From Thermodesulfovibrionales bacterium (lineage in GTDB: Bacteria; Nitrospirota; Thermodesulfovibrionia; Thermodesulfovibrionales; SM23-35): DNA of 43,668 bases. The notes beneath the pieces were generated by a model. It was given only the letters and a program-made list of their open reading frames with translations, had not been told where the DNA came from and did not search any database. Position 1 is the first letter of the stretch. The number at the start of each line of letters is the position of its first letter. This document shows, piece after piece, positions 767 to 32,216 of this stretch. The stretch spans positions 1 to 43,668 of the forward strand of contig JAGUWT010000284.1 in the NCBI GenBank assembly GCA_020062205.1, written 5' to 3'. The translations under genes and the position numbers were made by a program.

Positions 767-810
767 AATTGGGTCATCAAAATCCCTGAGGTAATTTTAG
801 TTTTAATTAA

Positions 811-860
811 CTTTTCATTTTTGCAATCAGCTTTTCACTTTTTACCTTTTACTTTTCACT
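811..860. repeat. short-period CTTTTCAC-type tandem array directly upstream of the pyruvyl transferase start
   Basis: Sequence is cttttcattttt..cttttcacttttt accttttac ttttcact. It has the same low-complexity arm style as the cassette flanks elsewhere in the window. Confidence 0.5.
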
Positions 861-2476: not shown

Positions 2477-3601
2477 ATGAGTAATTTAATAGAGTCAACA
2501 GAAGATATAAAGAGGTTCTATAAAGACAAGAGATGTCTGGTAACGGGTGGCTTTGGATTTGTCGGCAGCCACGTTGTTGAATCTCTTGTGAAAGCCGGTG
2601 CAGAAGTTCATGTCCTCGATATTGATACGGATGAGAATCGGGATTCATTAATTAACCTCTGCGGCTTAAGAGATAAGGTTCATATTATTACTGCTGACAT
2701 TACCGATAAAATTGCTATGGAAGAGATCATTCGACAGATTAAATGCGATATCATTTTCCATTTTGCTGCAGCAGCAACAGTCGTAGAAAAGGCAATGGAT
2801 CTGCCTTACTTAACTGTTTTGGCGAATACGATGGGACTTGTCAATATCTTAGAGGCAGTCAGGAAAATGAATAATTCAATCTATTCTGTTCTCTTCTCAT
2901 CTACTGACAAGGTATATGGAGAAGCATCGGAACTTCCCTATAAAGAGAATGCAACCCCTCTCAAGGCTGTAGGACTGTACGATTCAGCAAAAATGGCAGC
3001 AGATGTTCTTGCAAAATCATACGCTGAGGTTTTTAAAGTTAATGTTGTCATTGTAAGACTCTGTAATCTCTATGGTCCCTATGACTTCAATATTGACTAC
3101 AGGCTCATACCAAAGTCAATGAAGCACATTTATGGAGAGGGGAGGGCACCAGAACTCTATTTTCATTCTCTGGATCATTTCAGAGATTACTTATATATTG
3201 ACGATGCTGTCAGGGCCATGCTGCTCCTCGCTAAGGAAAAAAAATGTTTTGGAGAGATTTATAATATGCCCGGATGTAAGTATGCTTCAACTCCTGGCAT
3301 CCTGAAAGAAATAATAAATAGGGTAGCAGAGGTGGAAAGGAAACTTAATGGAGAAATCGGGGATCAGATAACGGCCAGAGGGATAAGGATAAAAATGGGC
3401 GACCCCCAACATATTGTCATTGAGAAACAGCATTTATGTGGTGAAAAGATAAAAGATTCTGTTGGCTTTGTTCCTGAGATCAGTTTTGAGGATGGCTTGG
3501 AAAGAACGATATTGTTTTATAGGGAATATTTTCAAAATCAAAAGAAGAGTATAGTAGTCAGTATACAGGAGACAGAAGGCAGAATGCAGGAGGCGGTATA
3601 A
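2477..3601 (+). CDS. NAD-dependent epimerase/dehydratase (extended SDR)
   Basis: RBS aggagg at 2465-2470. Rossmann motif VTGGFGFVGSHVV and catalytic YDSAK (YxxxK). The last ~10 codons (QETEGRMQE) are encoded by the 7-nt repeat arm of the downstream cassette. Confidence 0.85.
   Translation: MSNLIESTEDIKRFYKDKRCLVTGGFGFVGSHVVESLVKAGAEVHVLDIDTDENRDSLINLCGLRDKVHIITADITDKIAMEEIIRQIKCDIIFHFAAAATVVEKAMDLPYLTVLANTMGLVNILEAVRKMNNSIYSVLFSSTDKVYGEASELPYKENATPLKAVGLYDSAKMAADVLAKSYAEVFKVNVVIVRLCNLYGPYDFNIDYRLIPKSMKHIYGEGRAPELYFHSLDHFRDYLYIDDAVRAMLLLAKEKKCFGEIYNMPGCKYASTPGILKEIINRVAEVERKLNGEIGDQITARGIRIKMGDPQHIVIEKQHLCGEKIKDSVGFVPEISFEDGLERTILFYREYFQNQKKSIVVSIQETEGRMQEAV
3565..3592. repeat. left arm of four-helix-bundle cassette A: (NCAGRAG) x4, 7-nt tandem units
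   Basis: Units are acaggag acagaag gcagaat gcaggag. It is complementary to the right arm at 3971-3997 at 23 of 27 positions. Three of the four mismatches would be G-U pairs in RNA. Confidence 0.75.
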
Positions 3602-3961
3602 ATGAAGGCTAAGGTTTTTGAAGATCTTGGTGTTTGGCAGAAAAGCCACCGGTTTGTCCTTGACGTGTACAGGTTGACCCAGTCCTTCCCGAATTACGAA
3701 CGTTTCGGTTTAGTTTCTCAAATAAGACGTTCGGCTGTCTCCGTCCCAGCAAATATTGCCGAAGGCTTTAAGAAAAGAGGATTACCTGATAAGCTGCGGT
3801 ATTTCAATATATCACAAGGTTCATTGGAAGAAACGCGCTATTATCTGATCCTGGCTAACGATCTTGGATATGCTGACACAAAAAACCTAAAAGAGAATCT
3901 CGACGAAATTAGCCGCATGATAGACGGATACATGCAATCCATAAAGAATAGGCAAACGTAA
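3602..3961 (+). CDS. four-helix-bundle protein (23S rRNA intervening-sequence protein family)
   Basis: 119 aa. The ATG follows the upstream TAA directly. Hallmark residues: FEDLGVWQKSHRF..VYRLTQSFPNYERFGLVSQIRRSAVSVPANIAEGF..SQGSLEETRYYLILANDLGY. Confidence 0.9.
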   Translation: MKAKVFEDLGVWQKSHRFVLDVYRLTQSFPNYERFGLVSQIRRSAVSVPANIAEGFKKRGLPDKLRYFNISQGSLEETRYYLILANDLGYADTKNLKENLDEISRMIDGYMQSIKNRQT

Positions 3962-3962
3962 A

Positions 3963-3997
3963 TCTCCTGTCTTCTGTATTCTGTCTTCTGTCTCCTA
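3963..3997. repeat. right arm of cassette A: (TCTTCTG-like) x5, 7-nt tandem units
   Basis: Units are tctcctg tcttctg tattctg tcttctg tctccta. It is the reverse complement of the left arm. Confidence 0.75.
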
Positions 3998-4016
3998 ACC
4001 AAAAACGGAGGATAAT

Positions 4017-5012
4017 ATGCAAAACAACAATTCTTATTGGCACAAAAGACCCTGCCTGGTTACCGGCGGAGCAGGTTTTGGCGGGGCACACTTATGCGCT
4101 GAATTGTTATCAAGAGGCGCTAAGGTCTATGTCTACGACCGACATCTCCCTAAAGATTCCTACCTGGTGTTTGCAGGACTGGTTGACAGGGTAAATTTTA
4201 TACAGGGTGACATAAGGGATTTGGAATATTTGAAAATGATTAACACCCGATTTGAAATCACAAACATCTTCCATCTTGCTGCCCAGGCCATTAAGCCTCA
4301 GAGTAATCTAATCCCTTATGAAACCTTTGTAGTAAATGCTCAGGGAACCTATAATGTTCTGGAGACGGTTCGTACGGCAAAACAAAGCCCTCATCTCGTC
4401 TTTGCTTCGACAGGGGGCTATTACGGAACTTTTTTCTCAGAGGACTTGATTAATGAGGATTCCCCGCCTCTGGTGGGCGACAACGTTTACTCTGCCTCCA
4501 AAGTGGCTGGGGATATAGCTGTAAGATATTATGCCAATATCTTCGGAATAAAGGCTGCTACATGCCGGTTCATGCAGACCTACGGTCCTGGAGATACAAA
4601 TTTCAGTCGTATTATTCCCATAACCATTAAGTACCTTATGAATGGTCAGCATCCCAAACTAACCCGTTGTGATGGTACCCCTCAATGGGATTTCCTGCAT
4701 GTCAGGGATATGGCCAGAGCTTACACAGCCGTCGCCGAGAATCTGGACAAGAAAGAGGTTTCCGGACAGGCCTTTAATTTCGGCGGCGGGAACCCCATAT
4801 CAGTAAAGGAACTAGTTATGTTGATCAGCAAAGTCTTTACCGGTAAGGAAATTGAGCCAATCATACTTATACCACCTTCCGGTATTCTGCAAAAAACTTG
4901 TTTGGACATCTCAAAAGCAAAATCCTTACTGGGATGGAAACCCGGGATCAGCCTTGAAGATGGTCTTAAGGAGACTATTTCCTGGTATAGAGAAATCTGG
5001 GATCAACTATAA
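4017..5012 (+). CDS. NAD-dependent epimerase/dehydratase (extended SDR, sugar 4,6-dehydratase/epimerase-like)
   Basis: RBS ggagg at 4007-4011. Motifs VTGGAGFGGAHLC and catalytic YSASK. Confidence 0.8.
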   Translation: MQNNNSYWHKRPCLVTGGAGFGGAHLCAELLSRGAKVYVYDRHLPKDSYLVFAGLVDRVNFIQGDIRDLEYLKMINTRFEITNIFHLAAQAIKPQSNLIPYETFVVNAQGTYNVLETVRTAKQSPHLVFASTGGYYGTFFSEDLINEDSPPLVGDNVYSASKVAGDIAVRYYANIFGIKAATCRFMQTYGPGDTNFSRIIPITIKYLMNGQHPKLTRCDGTPQWDFLHVRDMARAYTAVAENLDKKEVSGQAFNFGGGNPISVKELVMLISKVFTGKEIEPIILIPPSGILQKTCLDISKAKSLLGWKPGISLEDGLKETISWYREIWDQL

Positions 5013-5041: not shown

Positions 5042-5071
5042 AGCCACGAATTGACACAAATGGACACGAAT
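5042..5071. repeat. left arm of an empty cassette: 10-nt units agccacgaat tgacacaaat ggacacgaat
   Basis: Inverted with respect to 5187-5216. The first unit is perfectly complementary and the other two match at 7 of 10 positions. Confidence 0.7.
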
Positions 5072-5186
5072 AAAGACAAAATCCTATATCAAGATTTATC
5101 ATATAAAATTATCTATAGGAAAAACTTTGCGTTTCTTTGCGCTCTTTGCGGTGAACTATTAGCTTCATTAGAATTGATTCCGCCTT

Positions 5187-5216
5187 ATTTGTGTAAATTC
5201 GTGGCCATTCGTGGCT
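5187..5216. repeat. right arm of the empty cassette: atttgtgtaa attcgtggcc attcgtggct
   Basis: Reverse complement of the left arm family. The arms enclose a 115-nt loop (5072-5186) with no credible ORF. Confidence 0.7.
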
Positions 5217-9502: not shown

Positions 9503-10279
9503 ATGAGAATTTTAATATTGATGTATCACATGATATCGAGGACGAACATAAAAATGGAAAAGAGGTATGCCCTTGTTCCCGAGAGATTCAGGCAGCAGTT
9601 AAGGTATCTTAAATGGAGAGGGTATGCACCGATTAGCCTTGACGATTTACACAACTATTTTATTAATAAGACTATTAGCCTTCCTGATAAACCAGTAATC
9701 ATAACCTTTGACGACGGATATATGGATAACTACGAAAATGCCTTACCGATCCTGAAAGAACAGAATGTCCCGGCTACCCTCTTCATAGTCAGTGGGCTTA
9801 TCAATAAAACGAACCGATGGATAATAAGCGAAGGATATCCAGAAAGACCGCTAATGGGATGGACCGAAATTCGAGAAATGCAGAAGAATGGTATGACGAT
9901 CGGTTCCCATACTGTAAATCATTGCCGTTTAACTACCTTAGATCTTAAAGATGCAAAACGGGAGATCGAGGATTCAAAGAAATTCCTCGAAGATAGCCTC
10001 GGTACTCAGATCAACCATTTTGCTTATCCCTATGGTGATATGAAGGATTCTATTATGAATATGACAAGAGATGCAGGATACAGGACAGCCTGTTCTACGA
10101 GGTCCGGGTTTAATTCAGAACAAGTAAGTCCCTATGAATTAAGGAGGCTTGAGATTTATGGTACAGATACCCTTTGGAAATTTGCATTAAAACTAACCTA
10201 TGGGACAAACGATGGCAACTTACTCCTTCCTGCAAGATACTACATGAAAAGAATGGCTGAGAGACTTAATCGTTATTAG
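9503..10279 (+). CDS. polysaccharide deacetylase (CE4 / NodB homology domain)
   Basis: Motifs ILMYHMI, ITFDDGYMDNYENALPILKE, ATLFIV, IGSHTVNHCRL and FAYPYGD. The stop lies inside the GTTATT repeat arm. Confidence 0.9.
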   Translation: MRILILMYHMISRTNIKMEKRYALVPERFRQQLRYLKWRGYAPISLDDLHNYFINKTISLPDKPVIITFDDGYMDNYENALPILKEQNVPATLFIVSGLINKTNRWIISEGYPERPLMGWTEIREMQKNGMTIGSHTVNHCRLTTLDLKDAKREIEDSKKFLEDSLGTQINHFAYPYGDMKDSIMNMTRDAGYRTACSTRSGFNSEQVSPYELRRLEIYGTDTLWKFALKLTYGTNDGNLLLPARYYMKRMAERLNRY

Positions 10280-10309
10280 GTTATTACGTTATTAAGTTAC
10301 TTTGTTATT
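10271..10309. repeat. left arm of four-helix-bundle cassette B: (GTTATTNN) x5, 8-nt tandem units
   Basis: Sequence is cgttatta ggttatta cgttatta agttactt tgttatt. The segment gttattacgttatt (10280-10293) is perfectly complementary to aataacgtaataac (10713-10726). Confidence 0.75.
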
Positions 10310-10702
10310 ATGGCTATCATCAGGACATTTGAAGATTTGGATGTATACAAGCTTGCAAGAGAATTTCGAAAGAACATATACAAAATGGTAAAGATTCTAC
10401 CGGAAGAGGAAAAATATAATCTATCTTCACAAATGCGCCGTGCGGCCTTATCTGTTACAAATAACATTGCCGAAGGATTTGGATGCTATCATTATCAAGA
10501 AAATATACAATTTTGCAGACAATCAAGAGGTTCAATCAATGAGTTGATAGATGATCTTAATACATGTATAGATGAGAATTACATTTCAAGAGATGTCTAT
10601 CATGATATAAAAGAAGAAGCTTATAGATTACTAAAAGTATTAAATTCTTATATAGCCAGCCTACAAAGACAAAAATTACGCAATAACGCAATAACTCAAT
10701 AA
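10310..10702 (+). CDS. four-helix-bundle protein (23S rRNA intervening-sequence protein family)
   Basis: 130 aa. Hallmark residues: FEDLDVYKLAREFRKNIYKMVKILPEEEKYNLSSQMRRAALSVTNNIAEGFG..SRGSINELIDDL. The C-terminal LRNNAITQ-stop is encoded by the repeat arm. Confidence 0.9.
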   Translation: MAIIRTFEDLDVYKLAREFRKNIYKMVKILPEEEKYNLSSQMRRAALSVTNNIAEGFGCYHYQENIQFCRQSRGSINELIDDLNTCIDENYISRDVYHDIKEEAYRLLKVLNSYIASLQRQKLRNNAITQ

Positions 10703-10750
10703 TGTGATAACCAATAACGTAATAACTTAGTAACCCAATAACGCAATAAT
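10674..10750. repeat. right arm of cassette B: (AATAACNN) x~9, 8-nt tandem units
   Basis: Sequence is ttacgc aataacgc aataactc aataatgtg ataacc aataacgt aataactt agtaaccc aataacgc aataatt. It is in inverted orientation relative to 10271-10309. Confidence 0.75.
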
Positions 10751-10757
10751 TAATTCA

Positions 10758-13509: not shown

Positions 13510-14061
13510 ATGGCACCGACTGTTACAGAAAAGAAAAAATATACCTACGAAGATTACCTTAAAACCCCTGAGGACGAGATATATGAACTCATAGAAGGAG
13601 AATTGCTTATGACACCATCGCCTATACCAAAGCATCAAAGGATTTCAAGGGAGCTTGAATTCGAAATATTAAAATTTGTTAAGGCGAATGACCTTGGAGA
13701 AGTCTTTTATGCACCGTGTGATGTATATCTTGATGATGAGAATGTTATACAGCCTGATATACTGTTTATCTCAAAAGAGAGGTTGAATATTATAGGTGAA
13801 AAGAACATACAGGGCGCACCAGACCTTGTGGTAGAGATAATCTCAGAGAACACTGCCTACAGGGACCTTGTGCAAAAAAAGAAATTATACGCAAGATTTG
13901 GTGTAAAGGAATACTGGATAGTAATTCCAAAGGAAGAATTAATAGAGGTTTATATTTTAAAGGATAACACCTACATGCTTTATAAGACCTATAGTAAGGA
14001 TGACACCCTTGAATCACCCTATCTGAAGGACTTGAAGATAGGATTAAAAAGTATATTCTAA
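13510..14061 (+). CDS. Uma2 family endonuclease (DUF820, restriction-endonuclease-like fold)
   Basis: Motifs YTYEDYLKTPEDEIYELIEGELLMTPSP, KHQRIS, IQPDILFISKERL, GAPDLVVEIIS and FGVKEYWIV. Confidence 0.9.
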   Translation: MAPTVTEKKKYTYEDYLKTPEDEIYELIEGELLMTPSPIPKHQRISRELEFEILKFVKANDLGEVFYAPCDVYLDDENVIQPDILFISKERLNIIGEKNIQGAPDLVVEIISENTAYRDLVQKKKLYARFGVKEYWIVIPKEELIEVYILKDNTYMLYKTYSKDDTLESPYLKDLKIGLKSIF

Positions 14062-14127
14062 ACCATCCTGAACTTAATAACTTAGTAACTTGATACTAAG
14101 AAGTTCATAAGTAATACCACATAATTG

Positions 14128-14212
14128 GTCATTCGCGCTTGTCGGGAATCTTTCTTCAAGAAGGATGCCGGACTTCGACGTGAGCTCAGTCGAACGACAA
14201 GCCGGCATGACA
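14128..14212. repeat. palindromic intergenic element (TGTCATT...AATGACA family), copy 2
   Basis: It starts gtcattcgcgcttgtcgggaatctttctt and shares gcttgtcgggaatc(c/t)ttctt with copy 1. It ends caagccggcatgaca. Internal hairpin: ttcgac-gtgagctca-gtcgaa. Confidence 0.65.
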
Positions 14213-14332
14213 GAAGAAAAAGAGTCATGTGACCTTACTCATGGTCTCATTAGTAACTCGATAACTCAATTACTTAGTTTAGGGATGAGAATGAGAAGAG
14301 GTTATGGGTTTCAAGTTATGAGTATAGGTTAT

Positions 14333-14359
14333 TTGAATAGATGGAATTTGTGATATAAT
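14333..14359 (+). promoter_or_regulatory. possible extended -10 promoter for the UPF0175 gene
   Basis: TGaTATAAT at 14351-14359, with TTGAAT at 14333-14338. The spacer is only 15 nt. Confidence 0.3.
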
Positions 14360-14404
14360 AGTCAAATTAGAATTTTTGAAATTTTGAAACTTAGGAGCAA
14401 GATT

Positions 14405-27727: not shown

Positions 27728-29017
27728 GTGAGAGAACAATCAGTGAATCAAAAGAAAATAGAAATTAAGGCAGTAGAAAATAGAAAGGACAATTTCAATA
27801 TTGGAAGATTGACCATGCTATTTTTATTCACTTTATTGATCATCTACGGGACTCTATACCCTTTCAGTGGTTGGCAGCAGCCTGATGGCAATATATGGAA
27901 TTTACTGGTACCAAAATGGCCCCGCCATATTTCCCGTACTGACTTAACCACAAATTTTCTGGTCTATATGCCCCTTGGTTTGTTTATCGCCAAATCTCTA
28001 AATATACGTTTAAGCTCCCTTTCAAGGATATTACTAACCACCATTCTGGGAACTGTATTCAGTTTTTCACTTGAATGTTTACAAGTGTTTCTTCCCAGCA
28101 GGGCATCATCCATTTTCGACGTTCTTTTAAATGGAGGTGGTACTTTTGCAGGTGCCACGTTTGCAGAAATCTTAGGAGATCGAACTGCTATGGGAAGAAA
28201 ATTAATATCATTGCGGCAGGAGTTGTTTTTACCTGGTCGTCTAAATGACCTTGGCCTTGTCATATTAGTTTTTTGGGCGCTGTCCCAATTAATTCCGCTG
28301 GTTCCCTCTCTCGATATAGGCAATTTGAAATACGGGCTTAAACCATTATGGAATACCCTTCATAATCTGAAGAGCTTTAATCTATATCAGGCGTTAGTAT
28401 ATACATTTAACATATTTGGCCTCGGTGTTGTCGCCTTTTTGATAGCAAAAGATAAAAATCATATGACTACTATATTTGCTACCTTTGTTACCACGGTGTT
28501 TCTTTTCAAGGTTCCGATTGTTGGACGACAACTATCTATGGAAGCAGTATCTGGGCTTGCCTGTGGCCTGGTTTTATTAATCTCTTTACGCTATATACCA
28601 AATCCGGTTTTGGTAGTTATGGCCGCAGTGGCTATCTTTGCGGCATTTGTCATCAATGAAGTGTATCCAGCTACAGCTTCTTTATCGTGTCTCCACTCAT
28701 TCAACTGGATTCCCTTTCGGAGGCAAATGACAAATTTAATGGGCATAATAAGTATCATGGAAGGGCTCTGGCCATTCGCATTGCTTGCTTACCTGACAAT
28801 GTTAATGCGCCAGTGTACACTCCTTAGCGCAATCCTTGCTGGATTGCCGCTGTTCATTCTTGTCTTTGTGATGGAATGGGTACAGCAGGGCATACCCGGC
28901 CGTTATCCTGATATTACCGCTGTCCTACTCGCAGTTATTGGATGGACTACGCCGCGGTTATTTATAGGCATTCCTATTGAGAAAATTCGTAGTGGCAGTT
29001 TACAGCCACTCAAATAA
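27728..29017 (+). CDS. VanZ-like domain polytopic membrane protein
   Basis: Motifs LLIIYGTLYPF and FSLECLQVFLPSRASSIFDVLLNGGGTFAGA (VanZ signature), followed by about 8 more hydrophobic helices. The start is uncertain (GTG 27728 or ATG 27815). Confidence 0.7.
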   Translation: MREQSVNQKKIEIKAVENRKDNFNIGRLTMLFLFTLLIIYGTLYPFSGWQQPDGNIWNLLVPKWPRHISRTDLTTNFLVYMPLGLFIAKSLNIRLSSLSRILLTTILGTVFSFSLECLQVFLPSRASSIFDVLLNGGGTFAGATFAEILGDRTAMGRKLISLRQELFLPGRLNDLGLVILVFWALSQLIPLVPSLDIGNLKYGLKPLWNTLHNLKSFNLYQALVYTFNIFGLGVVAFLIAKDKNHMTTIFATFVTTVFLFKVPIVGRQLSMEAVSGLACGLVLLISLRYIPNPVLVVMAAVAIFAAFVINEVYPATASLSCLHSFNWIPFRRQMTNLMGIISIMEGLWPFALLAYLTMLMRQCTLLSAILAGLPLFILVFVMEWVQQGIPGRYPDITAVLLAVIGWTTPRLFIGIPIEKIRSGSLQPLK

Positions 29018-29030
29018 AGAAGAAGTTTTT

Positions 29031-30242
29031 ATGAAGATCCTCCATATCCTCGACCATTATAAGCCCCACTTCAGTGGGTATGTCTTCAGGACAAGTTATA
29101 TCCTGAGATATCAAAAGGAGTTGGGCCTTGAGCCAATAGTGGTTACCTCACCAAAGCATGGTAATGCAGAGAAATCCCTCGAAGAGATTGACAATATAAA
29201 AATCTACAGGGCACCAGCCAATAATTTTGGGGGAATTCCATTCCTGAAAGAGGCACGATTAATGAAAGTACTTCGGGACAGGATTGTAGAAGCTGTCAGG
29301 AGAGAAAAACCTGATATCATCCATGCTCATTCACCAAGCCTCAATGGCATACCAGCATTGAGGGTAGGGAGGAAGTACAGTATACCTGTTGTCTATGAAA
29401 TAAGGGCTTTCTGGGAAGACGCTGCTGTTGACCATGGGACTTTCCGTGAAGGCTCTCTTCGATACAAGTGGAGCAGATTCATAGAGACAGAATTATTGAA
29501 AAGGGTTGATGCGGTATTCACAATATGTAGGAGTCTCAAGAAGGAGATAGTAGCAAGAGGTATAGAGGATAATAAAGTTACAATAATACCAAACTGTGTC
29601 GATGGAGGATATTTTTCACCCACAGCATATGATAAGGAGATAGCTGATAGATATGGCTTGGTTGATAAGATTGTCTTTGGTTTTATTGGTTCATTCTACC
29701 ACTATGAAGGGATAGATCTCTTGATAGATAGCTATAGAAATACTCTGAAAAAAAATAGAGATACACGGTTGCTCCTGGTCGGTGATGGACCTGAAAGAGT
29801 TGCACTTTATAAAAAGGCAGAAGAAAATGGGTTACTCGGCCATGTTATTTTTACCGGAAAGGTTCCCCATGAGGATGTAAAGAGATACTACTCAGTGATA
29901 GATTTCCTTATTTATCCAAGAAAGAGCATAAGACTTACTGAGCTCGTGACCCCTTTAAAACCCCTTGAGGCTATGGCAATGGGGAAGATTGTTGTTGGCA
30001 GTGATGTCGGTGGGATTAGAGAGTTGATAACACCTGATAAAGATGGACTACTGTTTAGAGCAGGAGATGCTGATGAACTTTCAAGATTGTTGATTGATCT
30101 GGCGCTGAATAATAAAGACCTTAAAAGAATCTCAATGACAGCAAGAGAGACAGTAGAGCATCAGCATAAATGGGAATCGGCTGTCAAAAAATACCTACCG
30201 ATATATGAGCATTTGATAAAAAAATTAAAAAATAACCAATAA
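29031..30242 (+). CDS. glycosyltransferase family 4, of the type found next to exosortase-locus AsnB genes
   Basis: ATG 29031 (MKILHILDHYKPHFSGYVFRT). The listed start at 28977 overlaps the VanZ-like gene. Motifs TELVTPLKPLEAMAMGKIVVGSDVGGIRELI. The C-terminal KNNQ-stop lies in an AATAAC array. Confidence 0.85.
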   Translation: MKILHILDHYKPHFSGYVFRTSYILRYQKELGLEPIVVTSPKHGNAEKSLEEIDNIKIYRAPANNFGGIPFLKEARLMKVLRDRIVEAVRREKPDIIHAHSPSLNGIPALRVGRKYSIPVVYEIRAFWEDAAVDHGTFREGSLRYKWSRFIETELLKRVDAVFTICRSLKKEIVARGIEDNKVTIIPNCVDGGYFSPTAYDKEIADRYGLVDKIVFGFIGSFYHYEGIDLLIDSYRNTLKKNRDTRLLLVGDGPERVALYKKAEENGLLGHVIFTGKVPHEDVKRYYSVIDFLIYPRKSIRLTELVTPLKPLEAMAMGKIVVGSDVGGIRELITPDKDGLLFRAGDADELSRLLIDLALNNKDLKRISMTARETVEHQHKWESAVKKYLPIYEHLIKKLKNNQ

Positions 30243-30269
30243 ACTAATAACTCAATAATTTTCTAAACC

Positions 30270-32216
30270 ATGTGTGGCATAGTCGGAATCATAAATACCG
30301 TTTTAACACCTGAAAGGTCTCTTTTAGAGAAGATGTGTAGGATAATGACCCACAGAGGGCCTGATGGGGAGGGGTGTTACATTGAAGGACCTATCGCTCT
30401 TGGACACAGGAGATTGAGCATTATAGACCTTGAGGGTGGAAAACAACCAATGAGTAATGAAGATGACACAGTGTGGATTACCTTCAATGGAGAAATATAT
30501 AACTTTCCCGATGTTCAAAGAGAACTTGAAAAAAAAGGACATCGATTTAAAACAAGAAGCGATACTGAAGTGATTATTCATGCATATGAAGAATATGGGA
30601 AAGAGTGCATAAAGTATTTCAGGGGGATGTTTGCATTCGGAATTTGGGATAGTAAAAAAAAGGAACTCTTTCTTGCACGTGACCGTCTTGGGAAGAAGCC
30701 TCTTTACTATTATGTTGATGACAGGAGTTTTATCTTTGCCTCAGAAATAAAGGCAATCCTTCAGGATGAATATATAAAAAGAGAACTTGATGTAAAGGCA
30801 CTGGCTGATTACTTTACCTATCATTACGTTCCGTTTCCTGAAACAATATTCAAAGGCATACATAAACTGCCACCAGGACATTTAATGACTGTTCGAATTG
30901 TTCAAGATGTTCGAGACGTTCAAGTCGTTTCGAACAAGTGTAATGATCGAACGAGCGAAGCGATCGAACATATCGAATTTACTATTCATCAATACTGGGA
31001 TATTGAATATAAACCGGACTATTCTCTATCAGAACAGGAGTGGGTAGAGGCATTAAAGGAAAAACTGAAAGAAGCAGTCAGGATCAGGCTTATCAGTGAT
31101 GTGCCACTTGGGGCGTTTCTCAGTGGAGGGATAGATTCAAGCACTGTTGTTGCATTCATGAGTATGGTTCAGAACACACCTGTCAAAACATTCTCAATAG
31201 GGTTCAAAGAAGAGGATTTCAGCGAAGTGAAATATGCACGGGAGGTTGCCAAGAGGTTTGGAACTGAACATCAGGAAATGGTGGTCGAGCCCGATGCTAT
31301 AGAGGTATTACCAAAGCTCGCATGGGAATTTGACGAACCTTTTGCAGATTCTTCAGCCATACCTACCTATTATGTATCTAAAATGGCGAGGAAGTATGTA
31401 ACCGTCATCCTTTCTGGTGATGGCGGTGATGAAACCTTTGCTGGCTATAGGAGGTATCTATGGGCAAGGGATATGCATAAATACGACTGGATACCTCTGC
31501 CTTTGAGGGCAATAGTATTCGGAATTCCTGCTGCACTACTCCCAGATGGTATGAGAGGCAAAGGTATGCTCAGGCACCTTTCAAACGGTCCCTTTGAGCG
31601 ATATGCAGGTCTTAATACCTTTGGAGAACTGAACTCCCTCAAAAATCTCTTGAGCACAGATGTTCTGAACGAAGTCCAAAAGAGACAAAATGGGAGGTTG
31701 CATGACTATGCCTTTCTCAAGAAGTATTATGACTTCTGTAAGCATGACGACTATCTCACAAAGATACAATACATGGACACAAAGACCTACCTTGCTGAGG
31801 ATATTCTAACCAAGGTAGATAGGGCAAGCATGCTCTGTAGTCTGGAGACCCGTGCTCCATTACTTGATCATGAGGTAATTGAACTTGTTGCCAGAATTCC
31901 ATCATCCATGAAGATAAAAGATGGTGAGACGAAATATATCCTCAAAAAGGCAATGGATGGAATCCTCCCTGATACGATTTTGTATAGAAAAAAAATGGGC
32001 TTTGGGGTGCCTCTTATATATTGGTTTAAGAAAGATTTAACACAATATGCACGTGAGGTTCTTCTTTCTCAGGAAACTAAACATCGAGGAATATTTAATC
32101 AGAGCTATATCAAGAATATTTTGGAGAGACATCAGAAAAAGGGAAGAGACCTGAGTGCTAAGATATGGGCACTTCTTTTTTTCGAACACTGGTGCAGGAA
32201 CTGGCTTGATACATAA
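30270..32216 (+). CDS. asnB: asparagine synthase (glutamine-hydrolysing) family amidotransferase, exosortase-locus type, with an in-frame repeat insertion
   Basis: MCGIVGII (Cys2 nucleophile), HRRLSIIDL, RDRLGKKPLYYY and the PP-loop GAFLSGGIDSSTV. The extra segment IVQDVRDVQVVSNKCNDRTSEAIEHIE follows PPGHLMTV. Confidence 0.9.
   Translation: MCGIVGIINTVLTPERSLLEKMCRIMTHRGPDGEGCYIEGPIALGHRRLSIIDLEGGKQPMSNEDDTVWITFNGEIYNFPDVQRELEKKGHRFKTRSDTEVIIHAYEEYGKECIKYFRGMFAFGIWDSKKKELFLARDRLGKKPLYYYVDDRSFIFASEIKAILQDEYIKRELDVKALADYFTYHYVPFPETIFKGIHKLPPGHLMTVRIVQDVRDVQVVSNKCNDRTSEAIEHIEFTIHQYWDIEYKPDYSLSEQEWVEALKEKLKEAVRIRLISDVPLGAFLSGGIDSSTVVAFMSMVQNTPVKTFSIGFKEEDFSEVKYAREVAKRFGTEHQEMVVEPDAIEVLPKLAWEFDEPFADSSAIPTYYVSKMARKYVTVILSGDGGDETFAGYRRYLWARDMHKYDWIPLPLRAIVFGIPAALLPDGMRGKGMLRHLSNGPFERYAGLNTFGELNSLKNLLSTDVLNEVQKRQNGRLHDYAFLKKYYDFCKHDDYLTKIQYMDTKTYLAEDILTKVDRASMLCSLETRAPLLDHEVIELVARIPSSMKIKDGETKYILKKAMDGILPDTILYRKKMGFGVPLIYWFKKDLTQYAREVLLSQETKHRGIFNQSYIKNILERHQKKGRDLSAKIWALLFFEHWCRNWLDT
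30891..30978. repeat. GTTCRA/TCGAAC 9-nt-periodic palindromic element, copy in the asnB coding sequence
   Basis: Units are gttcgaatt gttcaagat gttcgagac gttcaagtc gtttcgaac aagtgtaat gatcgaacg agcgaagcg atcgaacat atcgaat. That is ten 9-nt units, about 30 codons. Confidence 0.75.

Follow-up and report, generated by a model that had tools for sequence, protein, structure and literature searches.

Cassette A, at positions 3565-3997 of the 43,668-nt Thermodesulfovibrionales contig JAGUWT010000284.1 (the window, to which all coordinates of cassettes A and B refer), consists of a four-helix-bundle gene of the 23S rRNA intervening sequence (IVS) protein family enclosed by inverted arrays of short tandem repeats. 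Our analysis favors, with reasonable rather than high confidence, the view that it is one copy of a widespread IVS-type class, in which a PF05635 open reading frame (ORF) lies between inverted arrays of 6-8-nt repeats and the whole acts as an RNase III substrate in mRNA. We propose that such elements sit in the gaps of co-directional operons as well as, classically, in 23S rRNA. This view builds on the architecture of the cassette, the excess of arms over controls, their generality among relatives, the covariation of paired arms, the subfamily-specific arm types, the dynamics of the arrays, the behavior of the cassette as an indel unit, and purifying selection on its gene. RNase III cleavage of the cassette A mRNA and mobility of the cassette are both inferred.

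A four-helix-bundle gene between complementary repeat arms

Cassette A (~433 nt, + strand) is composed of gene A and two inverted period-7 arrays. The left arm (3553-3596, + strand) is a degenerate array of NCAGNAG units, of which 3567-3596 provide the 5′ strand of a predicted 30-bp helix. The right arm (3963-3999, + strand), comprising 4.4 copies of TCTTCTG/TCTCCTG and starting 2 nt past the gene A stop codon, provides the 3′ strand at 3967-3996. Tandem Repeats Finder (TRF) places the arrays at 3573-3594 (CAGAAGG, 3.1 copies) and 3963-3993 (TCTTCTG, 4.4 copies), both with a period of 7, and a repeat finder aligns 3567-3592 with 3971-3996 at 88% Watson-Crick complementarity over 26 nt. All three mismatches of this arm pair set a left G opposite a right T, corresponding to G-U in the sense RNA. 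The original prediction, made from the sequence alone, had counted 23 of 27 arm positions as complementary, with three of the four mismatches being G-U; adding the pair 3566/3997 reproduces this count.

Folding of 3545-4010 with RNAfold reveals 30 consecutive pairs (3567-3596 with 3967-3996) in the minimum free energy (MFE) and centroid structures alike, extending a helix first estimated at ~26 bp. The loop of the predicted stem comprises the 360-nt ORF, which the original prediction had placed there, together with 5 nt on either side. The stem is also more stable than shuffled sequence, as had been anticipated: none of 100 dinucleotide shuffles folds as stably (z = -4.78), and none of 539 displaced controls attains its gapless helix score of 68 (control median 24, 99th percentile 39.6, maximum 48).

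Gene A (3602-3961, + strand), which forms the loop of the stem-loop, encodes a 119-aa four-helix-bundle protein of the 23S rRNA IVS family. It matches PF05635 ("23S_rRNA_IVP") over its full length (128.9 bits, cut-off 33.8, E = 1e-37) and TIGR02436 ("four helix bundle protein") with 126.8 bits (cut-off 24, E = 4e-37). Its closest solved relative is XCC0516 of Xanthomonas (PDB 2GSC; E = 2.9e-21 over residues 6-117). PDB 2GSC and 2RLD are both homopentameric, with five chains each, suggesting by homology that the gene A product is a pentamer as well. Compared with orthologues at dS values of 0.4-0.8, gene A has a dN/dS of 0.07-0.14; this ratio, about 0.1, marks purifying selection on the ORF and thus a functional protein. 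No homologues were found in a phage collection. The Shine-Dalgarno (SD)-like site of gene A, AGGAGG (3588-3593, + strand), is located within the last heptamer of the left arm and within the predicted stem.

Inverted arms recur among relatives of gene A

We surveyed 80 loci, one per species, holding the closest species-level relatives of gene A (58-71% identity). They span about ten phyla, including Acidobacteriota, Verrucomicrobiota, Cyanobacteria, Bacteroidota, Desulfobacterota, Peptococcaceae, Planctomycetota, Ignavibacteriota, Chloroflexota, and others, and were supplemented with ~15 members of other subfamilies and four cultured examples. Flank pairs of equal geometry, displaced by 1-2.5 kb in the same 80 loci, served as controls. 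The best gapless helix between the 150-nt flanks has a median score of 50.5 for cassettes versus 24 for controls (95th percentile 33, maximum 48), exceeding the control 95th percentile in 69 of the 80 loci and the control maximum in 45. Full MFE folds contain at least 15 bp between the flanks in 72/83 cassettes (median 37 bp) versus 42/136 controls (median 8 bp). TRF arrays with periods of 6-9 occur at 5.1 per kb within 160 nt of family genes, compared with 0.25 per kb elsewhere in the same loci. RNAduplex on 130-nt flanks failed to separate real from displaced pairs (medians -65.8 and -61.5 kcal/mol) because long flanks always pick up scattered pairs, and the gapless-helix score and full folds were used instead.

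Other copies of the gene family carry inverted short-period flanks too, as the original prediction implied: beyond the 69 of 80 relatives, they are present around a second family gene in the window (gene B, below), in Xanthomonas, and in cyanobacteria. In Xanthomonas (L100; LR877306.1, 3984-4433), the XCC0516 orthologue separates accB from accC, genes that most bacteria keep side by side and transcribe together. It is flanked by inverted GGGAATC arrays (3990-4019 and 4403-4432) that are 87% complementary over 30 nt. When the PDB 2GSC sequence was used as a query to reach rRNA-borne copies, the matches listed were all chromosomal copies from Xanthomonadales. Plasmid copies in Nostoc punctiforme PCC 73102 (NPUN_RS35280 on pNPUN02) and Trichormus variabilis ATCC 29413 (AVA_RS28115 on plasmid C), within a type IV secretion system (T4SS) operon, have TCAGGAG/TCAGAAG arms, and arrays of these units also mark the cassettes of Dolichospermum and Lyngbya. 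On a plasmid of Picosynechococcus sp. PCC 7003 (L103; NZ_CP016476.1, 1165-1594), a cassette with GGAGATA-type arms is positioned between cas10/cmr2 and cmr3 of a type III-B operon.

Paired arms covary and follow the protein subfamily

The unit of subfamily A, to which gene A belongs, is C-A-G-(A/G/T)-A-(G/T)-N, with A at position 5 in 99% of 273 phased units, a position at which the search pattern did not impose A. The variable positions differ among cassettes, giving GGAGTCA, GTAGCCA, GAATCCA, GAAGACA, and other heptamers. At these positions, the left and right arms of one cassette match with a frequency of 0.667; permuting arms among cassettes lowers this to 0.399, and none of 2000 permutations exceeds 0.561. 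The two arms of a cassette covary. A purine-rich sense unit on the left with its complement on the right is found in 61 cassettes, with one reversed and one having both arms in the sense orientation. We judge this polarity uninformative on an RNA versus a DNA role, since inversion of the interior preserves it and common descent explains it.

Arm types change between subfamilies and within single loci. B-type arms, present in the window and in L094, L096, L097, and L098, have the period-8 unit GTNAYTNN, with GTNATT shared by L094, L096, and L097. Locus L081 contains three cassettes with three arm types, among them the period-7 unit AAAAGTG of cassette 1 and the period-6 unit AAGGYT of cassette 3, and the second cassette of L078 has the period-8 unit CAAGATTN. 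Different arms likewise coexist within the window and within L095, and one subfamily has one kind of arm even across unrelated hosts. Repeat period and invariant positions therefore track the protein subfamily rather than the host, and because arms differ within loci yet recur by subfamily across hosts, they belong to the cassette and not to the genome.

The arrays expand and contract. Between near-identical orthologous cassettes, heptamer number varies by whole units (7-nt steps), over 4-11 on the left and 5-12 on the right, matching the strain-to-strain variation reported for the Coxiella IVS. The right arm starts at a median of 2 nt past the stop codon and overlaps the 3′ end of the ORF in 44% of cassettes, as it does in gene B.

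An empty site delimits the cassette

Gene A orthologues with 87-91% identity occupy the same slot between the same two epimerase genes in L081, L083, L085, and other metagenomic contigs, so the cassette A site has been inherited vertically. A metagenome scan with the upstream epimerase retrieved three loci, among them one close empty site, L091. The upstream epimerase of L091 is 85% identical to that of the window, compared with only 70-71% for the cassette-bearing L081 and L083, and its downstream epimerase is 77% identical. Here, the two epimerase genes abut without arms and without the ORF, with a single CAGGAGG, an SD-like unit, between them. Junction alignments of L091 with the window place the indel boundaries at about 3565-3997, the very limits originally predicted, and the more distant L092 and L093 are likewise empty. 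In these alignments, the arms and the ORF behave as one indel unit. The difference is readable as loss, gain, or exchange, since recombination affects polysaccharide loci and L091 falls between cassette-bearing relatives. Alignment of filled and empty sites, with flanks diverged by 15-30%, reveals no recognizable target-site duplication. No transposase adjoins the cassettes examined; one DDE transposase is located ~5 kb away in L084.

Cassettes occupy gaps in unrelated operons

The genes neighboring cassette A are all on the + strand and form a polysaccharide cluster of pyruvyl transferase, epimerase, glycosyltransferase, and deacetylase genes; no promoter-like or terminator-like site was found on the + strand around the cassette. 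The upstream gene (2477-3601, + strand), encoding an NAD-dependent epimerase/dehydratase, has a frame that crosses the left arm and a TAA that abuts the gene A ATG at 3602. The downstream epimerase/dehydratase gene (4005-5012, ATG at 4017, + strand) has its own GGAGG at 4007-4011, outside the stem. The original prediction had the left arm supply the C-terminal tail and stop of the upstream epimerase. This holds in the window without being conserved: ahead of the orthologous ORFs in L081 and L083, the epimerase ends 24 and 54 nt upstream of the ATG, the frame is not open through the left arm, and the tail is therefore a local accident, incidental to the design.

Both neighbors are co-directional in 49 of the 70 subfamily-A cassettes with enough flanking sequence, and both are opposite in three. 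A median of 53 nt separates the upstream stop codon from the ATG, a gap that the arm takes up; survey gene starts were set by homology, making arm-to-gene distances approximate. The host operons are unrelated, encoding polysaccharide synthesis, accBC, type III-B cas, T4SS, and type II secretion system (T2SS)-type ATPases, which argues for hitchhiking rather than a shared pathway function. The four-helix-bundle family is named in a figure legend of a CRISPR-association clustering screen (PMC10910872), a listing that the cas10-cmr3 insertion may explain as hitchhiking.

A second cassette and gene-less arrays

A tblastn search of the window with gene A identified gene B (10310-10702, + strand), a second four-helix-bundle member with 29% identity to gene A and a TIGR02436 score of 101 bits. 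Its left arm (10271-10309, + strand), a period-8 array of GTTATTAN in 4.9 copies, also contains the stop codon at which the preceding polysaccharide deacetylase gene (9503-10279) ends. The right arm (10674-10752, + strand), a period-8 array of AATAACNN in 9.6 copies, is complementary to the left arm and contains the C-terminal residues and stop codon of gene B. The best helix pairs 10279-10309 with 10682-10712, its score of 46 exceeds the control 99th percentile, and the fold closes the arms. The arms of cassettes B and A are unrelated in sequence and differ in period (8 versus 7).

The window also contains arrays unaccompanied by a family gene. Immediately before the pyruvyl transferase ORF (862-2112) stands a solo period-7 array of CTTTTCA/CTTTTTA units (809-859). 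The L081 orthologue of this ORF follows a full cassette (3116-3499) whose right arm is of the same repeat type, and the array in the window resembles what a lost cassette would leave behind. After the second epimerase gene, a gene-less stem (5042-5216), with 32-nt arms at 5042-5073 and 5185-5216 that are 81% complementary, encloses 111 nt including a small CTTTGCG array of three copies (5125-5150). A Uma2-family gene (13510-14061) is followed by ~320 nt of gene-less intergenic sequence (14061-14384) with period-8 arrays resembling the B type in both orientations (14071-14095, 14250-14280, and 14300-14335), along with a 17-nt inverted repeat (14128-14144 and 14195-14211). This region may be a decayed cassette; the Uma2 gene was considered as cargo and rejected, as the arms do not enclose it. 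A solo B-type array (AATAACC, AATAAAC, TAATAAC, and so on; 30230-30259) occupies the 27-nt gap between ORFs 28977-30242 and 30270-32216, without a four-helix-bundle gene.

Similar features are found in related loci. Gene-less hairpins in L031 (4415-4500), L035 (1497-1580), and L004 (954-1033) consist of a left array, a 14-18-nt loop, and a complementary right array, built of heptamer units of the cassette kind like miniature ORF-less cassettes. In L018 (5100-5620), a left-arm-type array (5114-5170) precedes a higher-order tandem repeat of ~54/108 nt that combines right-arm-type heptamers (TTCTGAC TTCCGAC TTCTGAA TTCTGTA) with a constant spacer. In L026 (1-650; Peptococcaceae bacterium BRH_c4a), a TwoAYGGAY RNA motif (RF01731; 278-436, 48.5 bits versus a gathering score of 43) is situated between heptamer arrays: six copies of GGAGACA (1-42), a GAATCCA-type array (162-193), and a complementary CCTGTCT array (609-650). 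Judged from this sequence, cassette-type arms may enclose non-coding RNA as well.

Relation to known elements

ORF-containing IVSs of 23S rRNA are known from Leptospira as well as from Coxiella burnetii; our comparison with rRNA-borne copies uses the Coxiella burnetii IVS, the only experimentally dissected member (PMC4990558). This 428-nt IVS, located in helix 45 of 23S rRNA, carries an S23p ORF, tandem heptameric repeats (GACAGAT) of variable copy number in its 5′ arm, and a 28-bp stem (PMC4990558). RNase III cleaves it in vitro, with ends mapped to mid-stem by rapid amplification of cDNA ends; its ORF is reported to be decaying and probably untranslated (PMC4990558). The same study describes the family proteins as homopentameric toroids, cites IVS cases in Brucella, Xanthomonas, and Haemophilus, and notes that the function and origin of IVSs have been called unclear since 1990, citing an old proposal that the ORF serves mobility (PMC4990558).

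Cassette A shares with rRNA IVSs an ORF of the same family (PF05635, "S23p") within complementary termini, a stem of ~28-30 bp, a sporadic distribution among relatives (L091 lacks it), and an AG-rich SD-like site inside the arm. Like that of Coxiella, its 5′ arm is composed of variable-number tandem heptamers (CAGNAGN in cassette A, GACAGAT in Coxiella). Unlike rRNA IVSs, cassette A resides in a protein-coding polysaccharide operon, with no Rfam family, rRNA included, reaching threshold anywhere in the window, and it sits between two cistrons, the epimerase ORFs, rather than in place of a helix tip (helix 9, 25, or 45). Gene A is under purifying selection, in contrast to the decaying Coxiella ORF, and RNase III cleavage, demonstrated for the Coxiella IVS, is predicted for cassette A. 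The earlier proposal of an IVS-like unit is borne out in part: each of its computational checks (stem stability, the flanks of other copies, and the empty site) favors it, as does the Coxiella-like architecture, and the test of G-U mismatches (below) and the accidental epimerase tail do not. In full-text literature searches, we found no account of such inverted tandem-repeat arms for family members outside rRNA, and we propose that this layout constitutes a previously uncatalogued class.

RNase III processing stems are known from rRNA operons, where they flank 16S and 23S rRNA, and from phage T7 early mRNA. As in those stems, long-range pairing of the cassette flanks would create at least 20 bp of double-stranded RNA, at which cleavage frees a unit from the transcript. 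The rRNA and T7 stems are unique and fixed, whereas the cassette stem is built of expanding and contracting tandem repeats and moves with the ORF as an indel unit.

Repetitive extragenic palindromic (REP) doublets, REPINs, and their REP-associated tyrosine transposases (RAYTs) offer another parallel: one small gene is flanked by inverted short repeats, gene-less hairpins are scattered in the same genomes, and the repeat type is specific to the associated gene lineage. RAYT, however, is an IS200/IS605-type tyrosine transposase, and gene A encodes a 119-aa four-helix bundle without a transposase domain match; the arms are tandem 6-8-nt arrays rather than single REP palindromes, and differing arms coexist in one locus. 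An integron gene cassette, with a single 3′ attC and an intI, differs from cassette A in that the latter has repeat arms on both sides of the ORF and ordinary operon genes as neighbors; no integrase domain was present among the window proteins scanned.

Avd, which binds nucleic acid together with reverse transcriptase in diversity-generating retroelements (DGRs), has a homologous four-helix-bundle fold. Gene A matches the bAvd and NCBIfam Avd models weakly, below both cut-offs (PF22296, 28.4 < 40 bits; NF033474, 31.9 < 80 bits). No reverse-transcriptase domain appears among 15 Pfam-scanned window proteins or in the precomputed Pfam labels of related loci, and template and variable repeats (TR/VR) were not searched for. 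We know of no Avd genes enclosed by inverted tandem arrays. Short tandemly repeated repetitive (STRR) heptamers are a known feature of heterocystous cyanobacteria, and like the cassette arms, which also occur in cyanobacteria, they are intergenic 7-nt tandem repeats. The STRR heptanucleotides that Mazel et al. are said to have described in 1990, CCCCAGT, TTGGTCA, and CAACAGT, differ from the TCAGGAG/TCAGAAG cassette units. No link of STRR to the four-helix-bundle family was found in the searchable literature, and the resemblance serves as a lead only.

A working model and its alternatives

In the model we favor, cassette A would be transcribed as part of the polysaccharide operon, since it has no promoter-like or terminator-like site of its own. 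In the transcript, pairing of the arms would give a ~30-bp helix, which is a canonical RNase III substrate; the cut would release the loop with its ORF and part the two flanking cistrons. Both cistrons would keep a ribosome-binding site of their own (for the downstream epimerase, GGAGG at 4007-4011), and the insertion would therefore be tolerated, like rRNA fragmentation. In the window genome, translation of gene A is probably coupled to ribosomes opening the stem, because the SD-like site lies in the stem and the epimerase frame crosses the left arm; this coupling is not general. We regard it as fairly probable that co-transcription, arm pairing, an RNase III cut, and continued translatability of the flanking cistrons hold jointly. 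The invariant positions (CAGNANN in subfamily A, GTNAYTNN in subfamily B) point to a sequence-specific partner, as pairing alone cannot explain them. The encoded pentamer would be the most economical reader, given that this constraint varies between protein subfamilies rather than between hosts.

Several observations weigh against this model. About 30% of cassettes are without two co-directional neighbors. Mismatches in 48 cassettes comprise 52 of the G-U type, 54 of the A-C type, and 105 transversions; with no wobble bias, they bear no signature of selection on sense RNA specifically. General sequestration of the SD-like site by the stem was considered and rejected, as it holds in the window and not in relatives, where 7/28 SD-like motifs lie inside the helix. 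In some B-type loci (L095, 400-1650; L098, 1350-1950), (+) and (-) arrays upstream accompany a (-) array downstream rather than forming a simple pair, so either a hairpin local to the upstream arrays or a long-range pairing that closes around the ORF is possible there. The gene-less arrays and hairpins indicate that arms can persist without an ORF, and the survey covers one part of the family, centered on the relatives of gene A.

The main competing explanation, which we consider unlikely, is that the arms act on DNA, as terminal inverted repeats or protein-binding arrays of a small mobile element, with the RNA stem as a by-product. Movement would then involve an enzyme acting in trans or hairpin/cruciform intermediates during replication. 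The strand symmetry of the mismatches (52 versus 54) fits such a role, and the invariant repeat positions imply sequence-specific recognition beyond pairing. The behavior of the cassette as an indel unit, the resemblance of gene-less hairpins of the same repeat type in the same genomes to non-autonomous derivatives, and copy-number change in 7-nt steps, as expected of replication slippage, are compatible with it too. Yet no transposase, recombinase, or integrase is present in or beside the cassettes examined, no target-site duplication is recognizable at the diverged L091 junction, and cassettes at the epimerase site have been inherited vertically over a dS of ~0.4-0.8. Moreover, the only experimentally studied member, that of Coxiella, is processed as RNA.

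Less likely again is that the arms are operator-like binding arrays, in RNA or DNA, through which the encoded pentamer regulates its own expression or protects the transcript. Arm complementarity would then be secondary to one site occurring in both orientations, an arrangement compatible with RNase III processing. Period and invariant positions that follow the subfamily rather than the host, two or three arm types per locus, arrays commonly of ~4-6 units, the homopentameric toroids formed by homologous proteins, and nucleic-acid binding by the relative Avd all accord with such a role. Variable positions that also match between arms are unneeded by a pure binding-site model, and the correlation of subfamily and arm could be mere co-inheritance.

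That the arrays are generic intergenic simple repeats, REP-like or STRR-like and unrelated to the gene, is largely refuted and very improbable. The solo arrays and gene-less hairpins of the window (809-859, 5042-5216, 14071-14335, and 30230-30259) and of related loci would suit it, as would the STRR heptamers of cyanobacteria, but array density is 20 times higher beside family genes, arm type switches with protein subfamily inside one locus, subfamily A keeps one heptamer consensus and polarity in about ten phyla, and arms and ORF are absent together at the L091 empty site. A chance match between short, compositionally biased arms (purine-rich left, pyrimidine-rich right) is refuted by the shuffle and displacement controls and by recurrence of the pattern in most of ~100 independent loci.

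A broader form of the IVS-type model, which we put forward only tentatively and hold to be a minority possibility, is that the family genes are the autonomous form of abundant selfish stem-loop elements, each subfamily protein recognizing its own 6-8-nt arms. By analogy with REPIN-RAYT, the gene-less hairpins would be non-autonomous derivatives, and the classical 23S rRNA IVSs would be a small subset that landed in rRNA. The arms would render operon insertion harmless by providing an RNase III excision site, which would explain why the genes are found inside accBC, cas, T4SS, and polysaccharide operons. In a more extreme version, telomere-like inverted arrays would be added to an excised intermediate by a templated or slippage process, with an Avd-like protein as cofactor.

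Implications

PF05635/TIGR02436 ranks among the large protein families whose function is unknown; three protein searches each drew at least close to 8000 candidates, and members are routinely annotated just as "four helix bundle protein" or, wrongly, as "S23 ribosomal protein". If the non-rRNA copies are the same element as the rRNA-borne ones, the IVS would be a general operon-dwelling element and no longer an rRNA oddity. The family would gain a testable context, comprising a cognate repeat along with predictions of an RNase III site and of a binding target, with work feasible in tractable carriers such as Xanthomonas (accB-accC), Nostoc punctiforme, Trichormus variabilis, and Picosynechococcus. 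Its associations with CRISPR, secretion, and polysaccharide loci in guilt-by-association screens would then reflect hitchhiking (e.g., PMC10910872), and the cassettes may add unannotated mRNA processing sites within essential operons.

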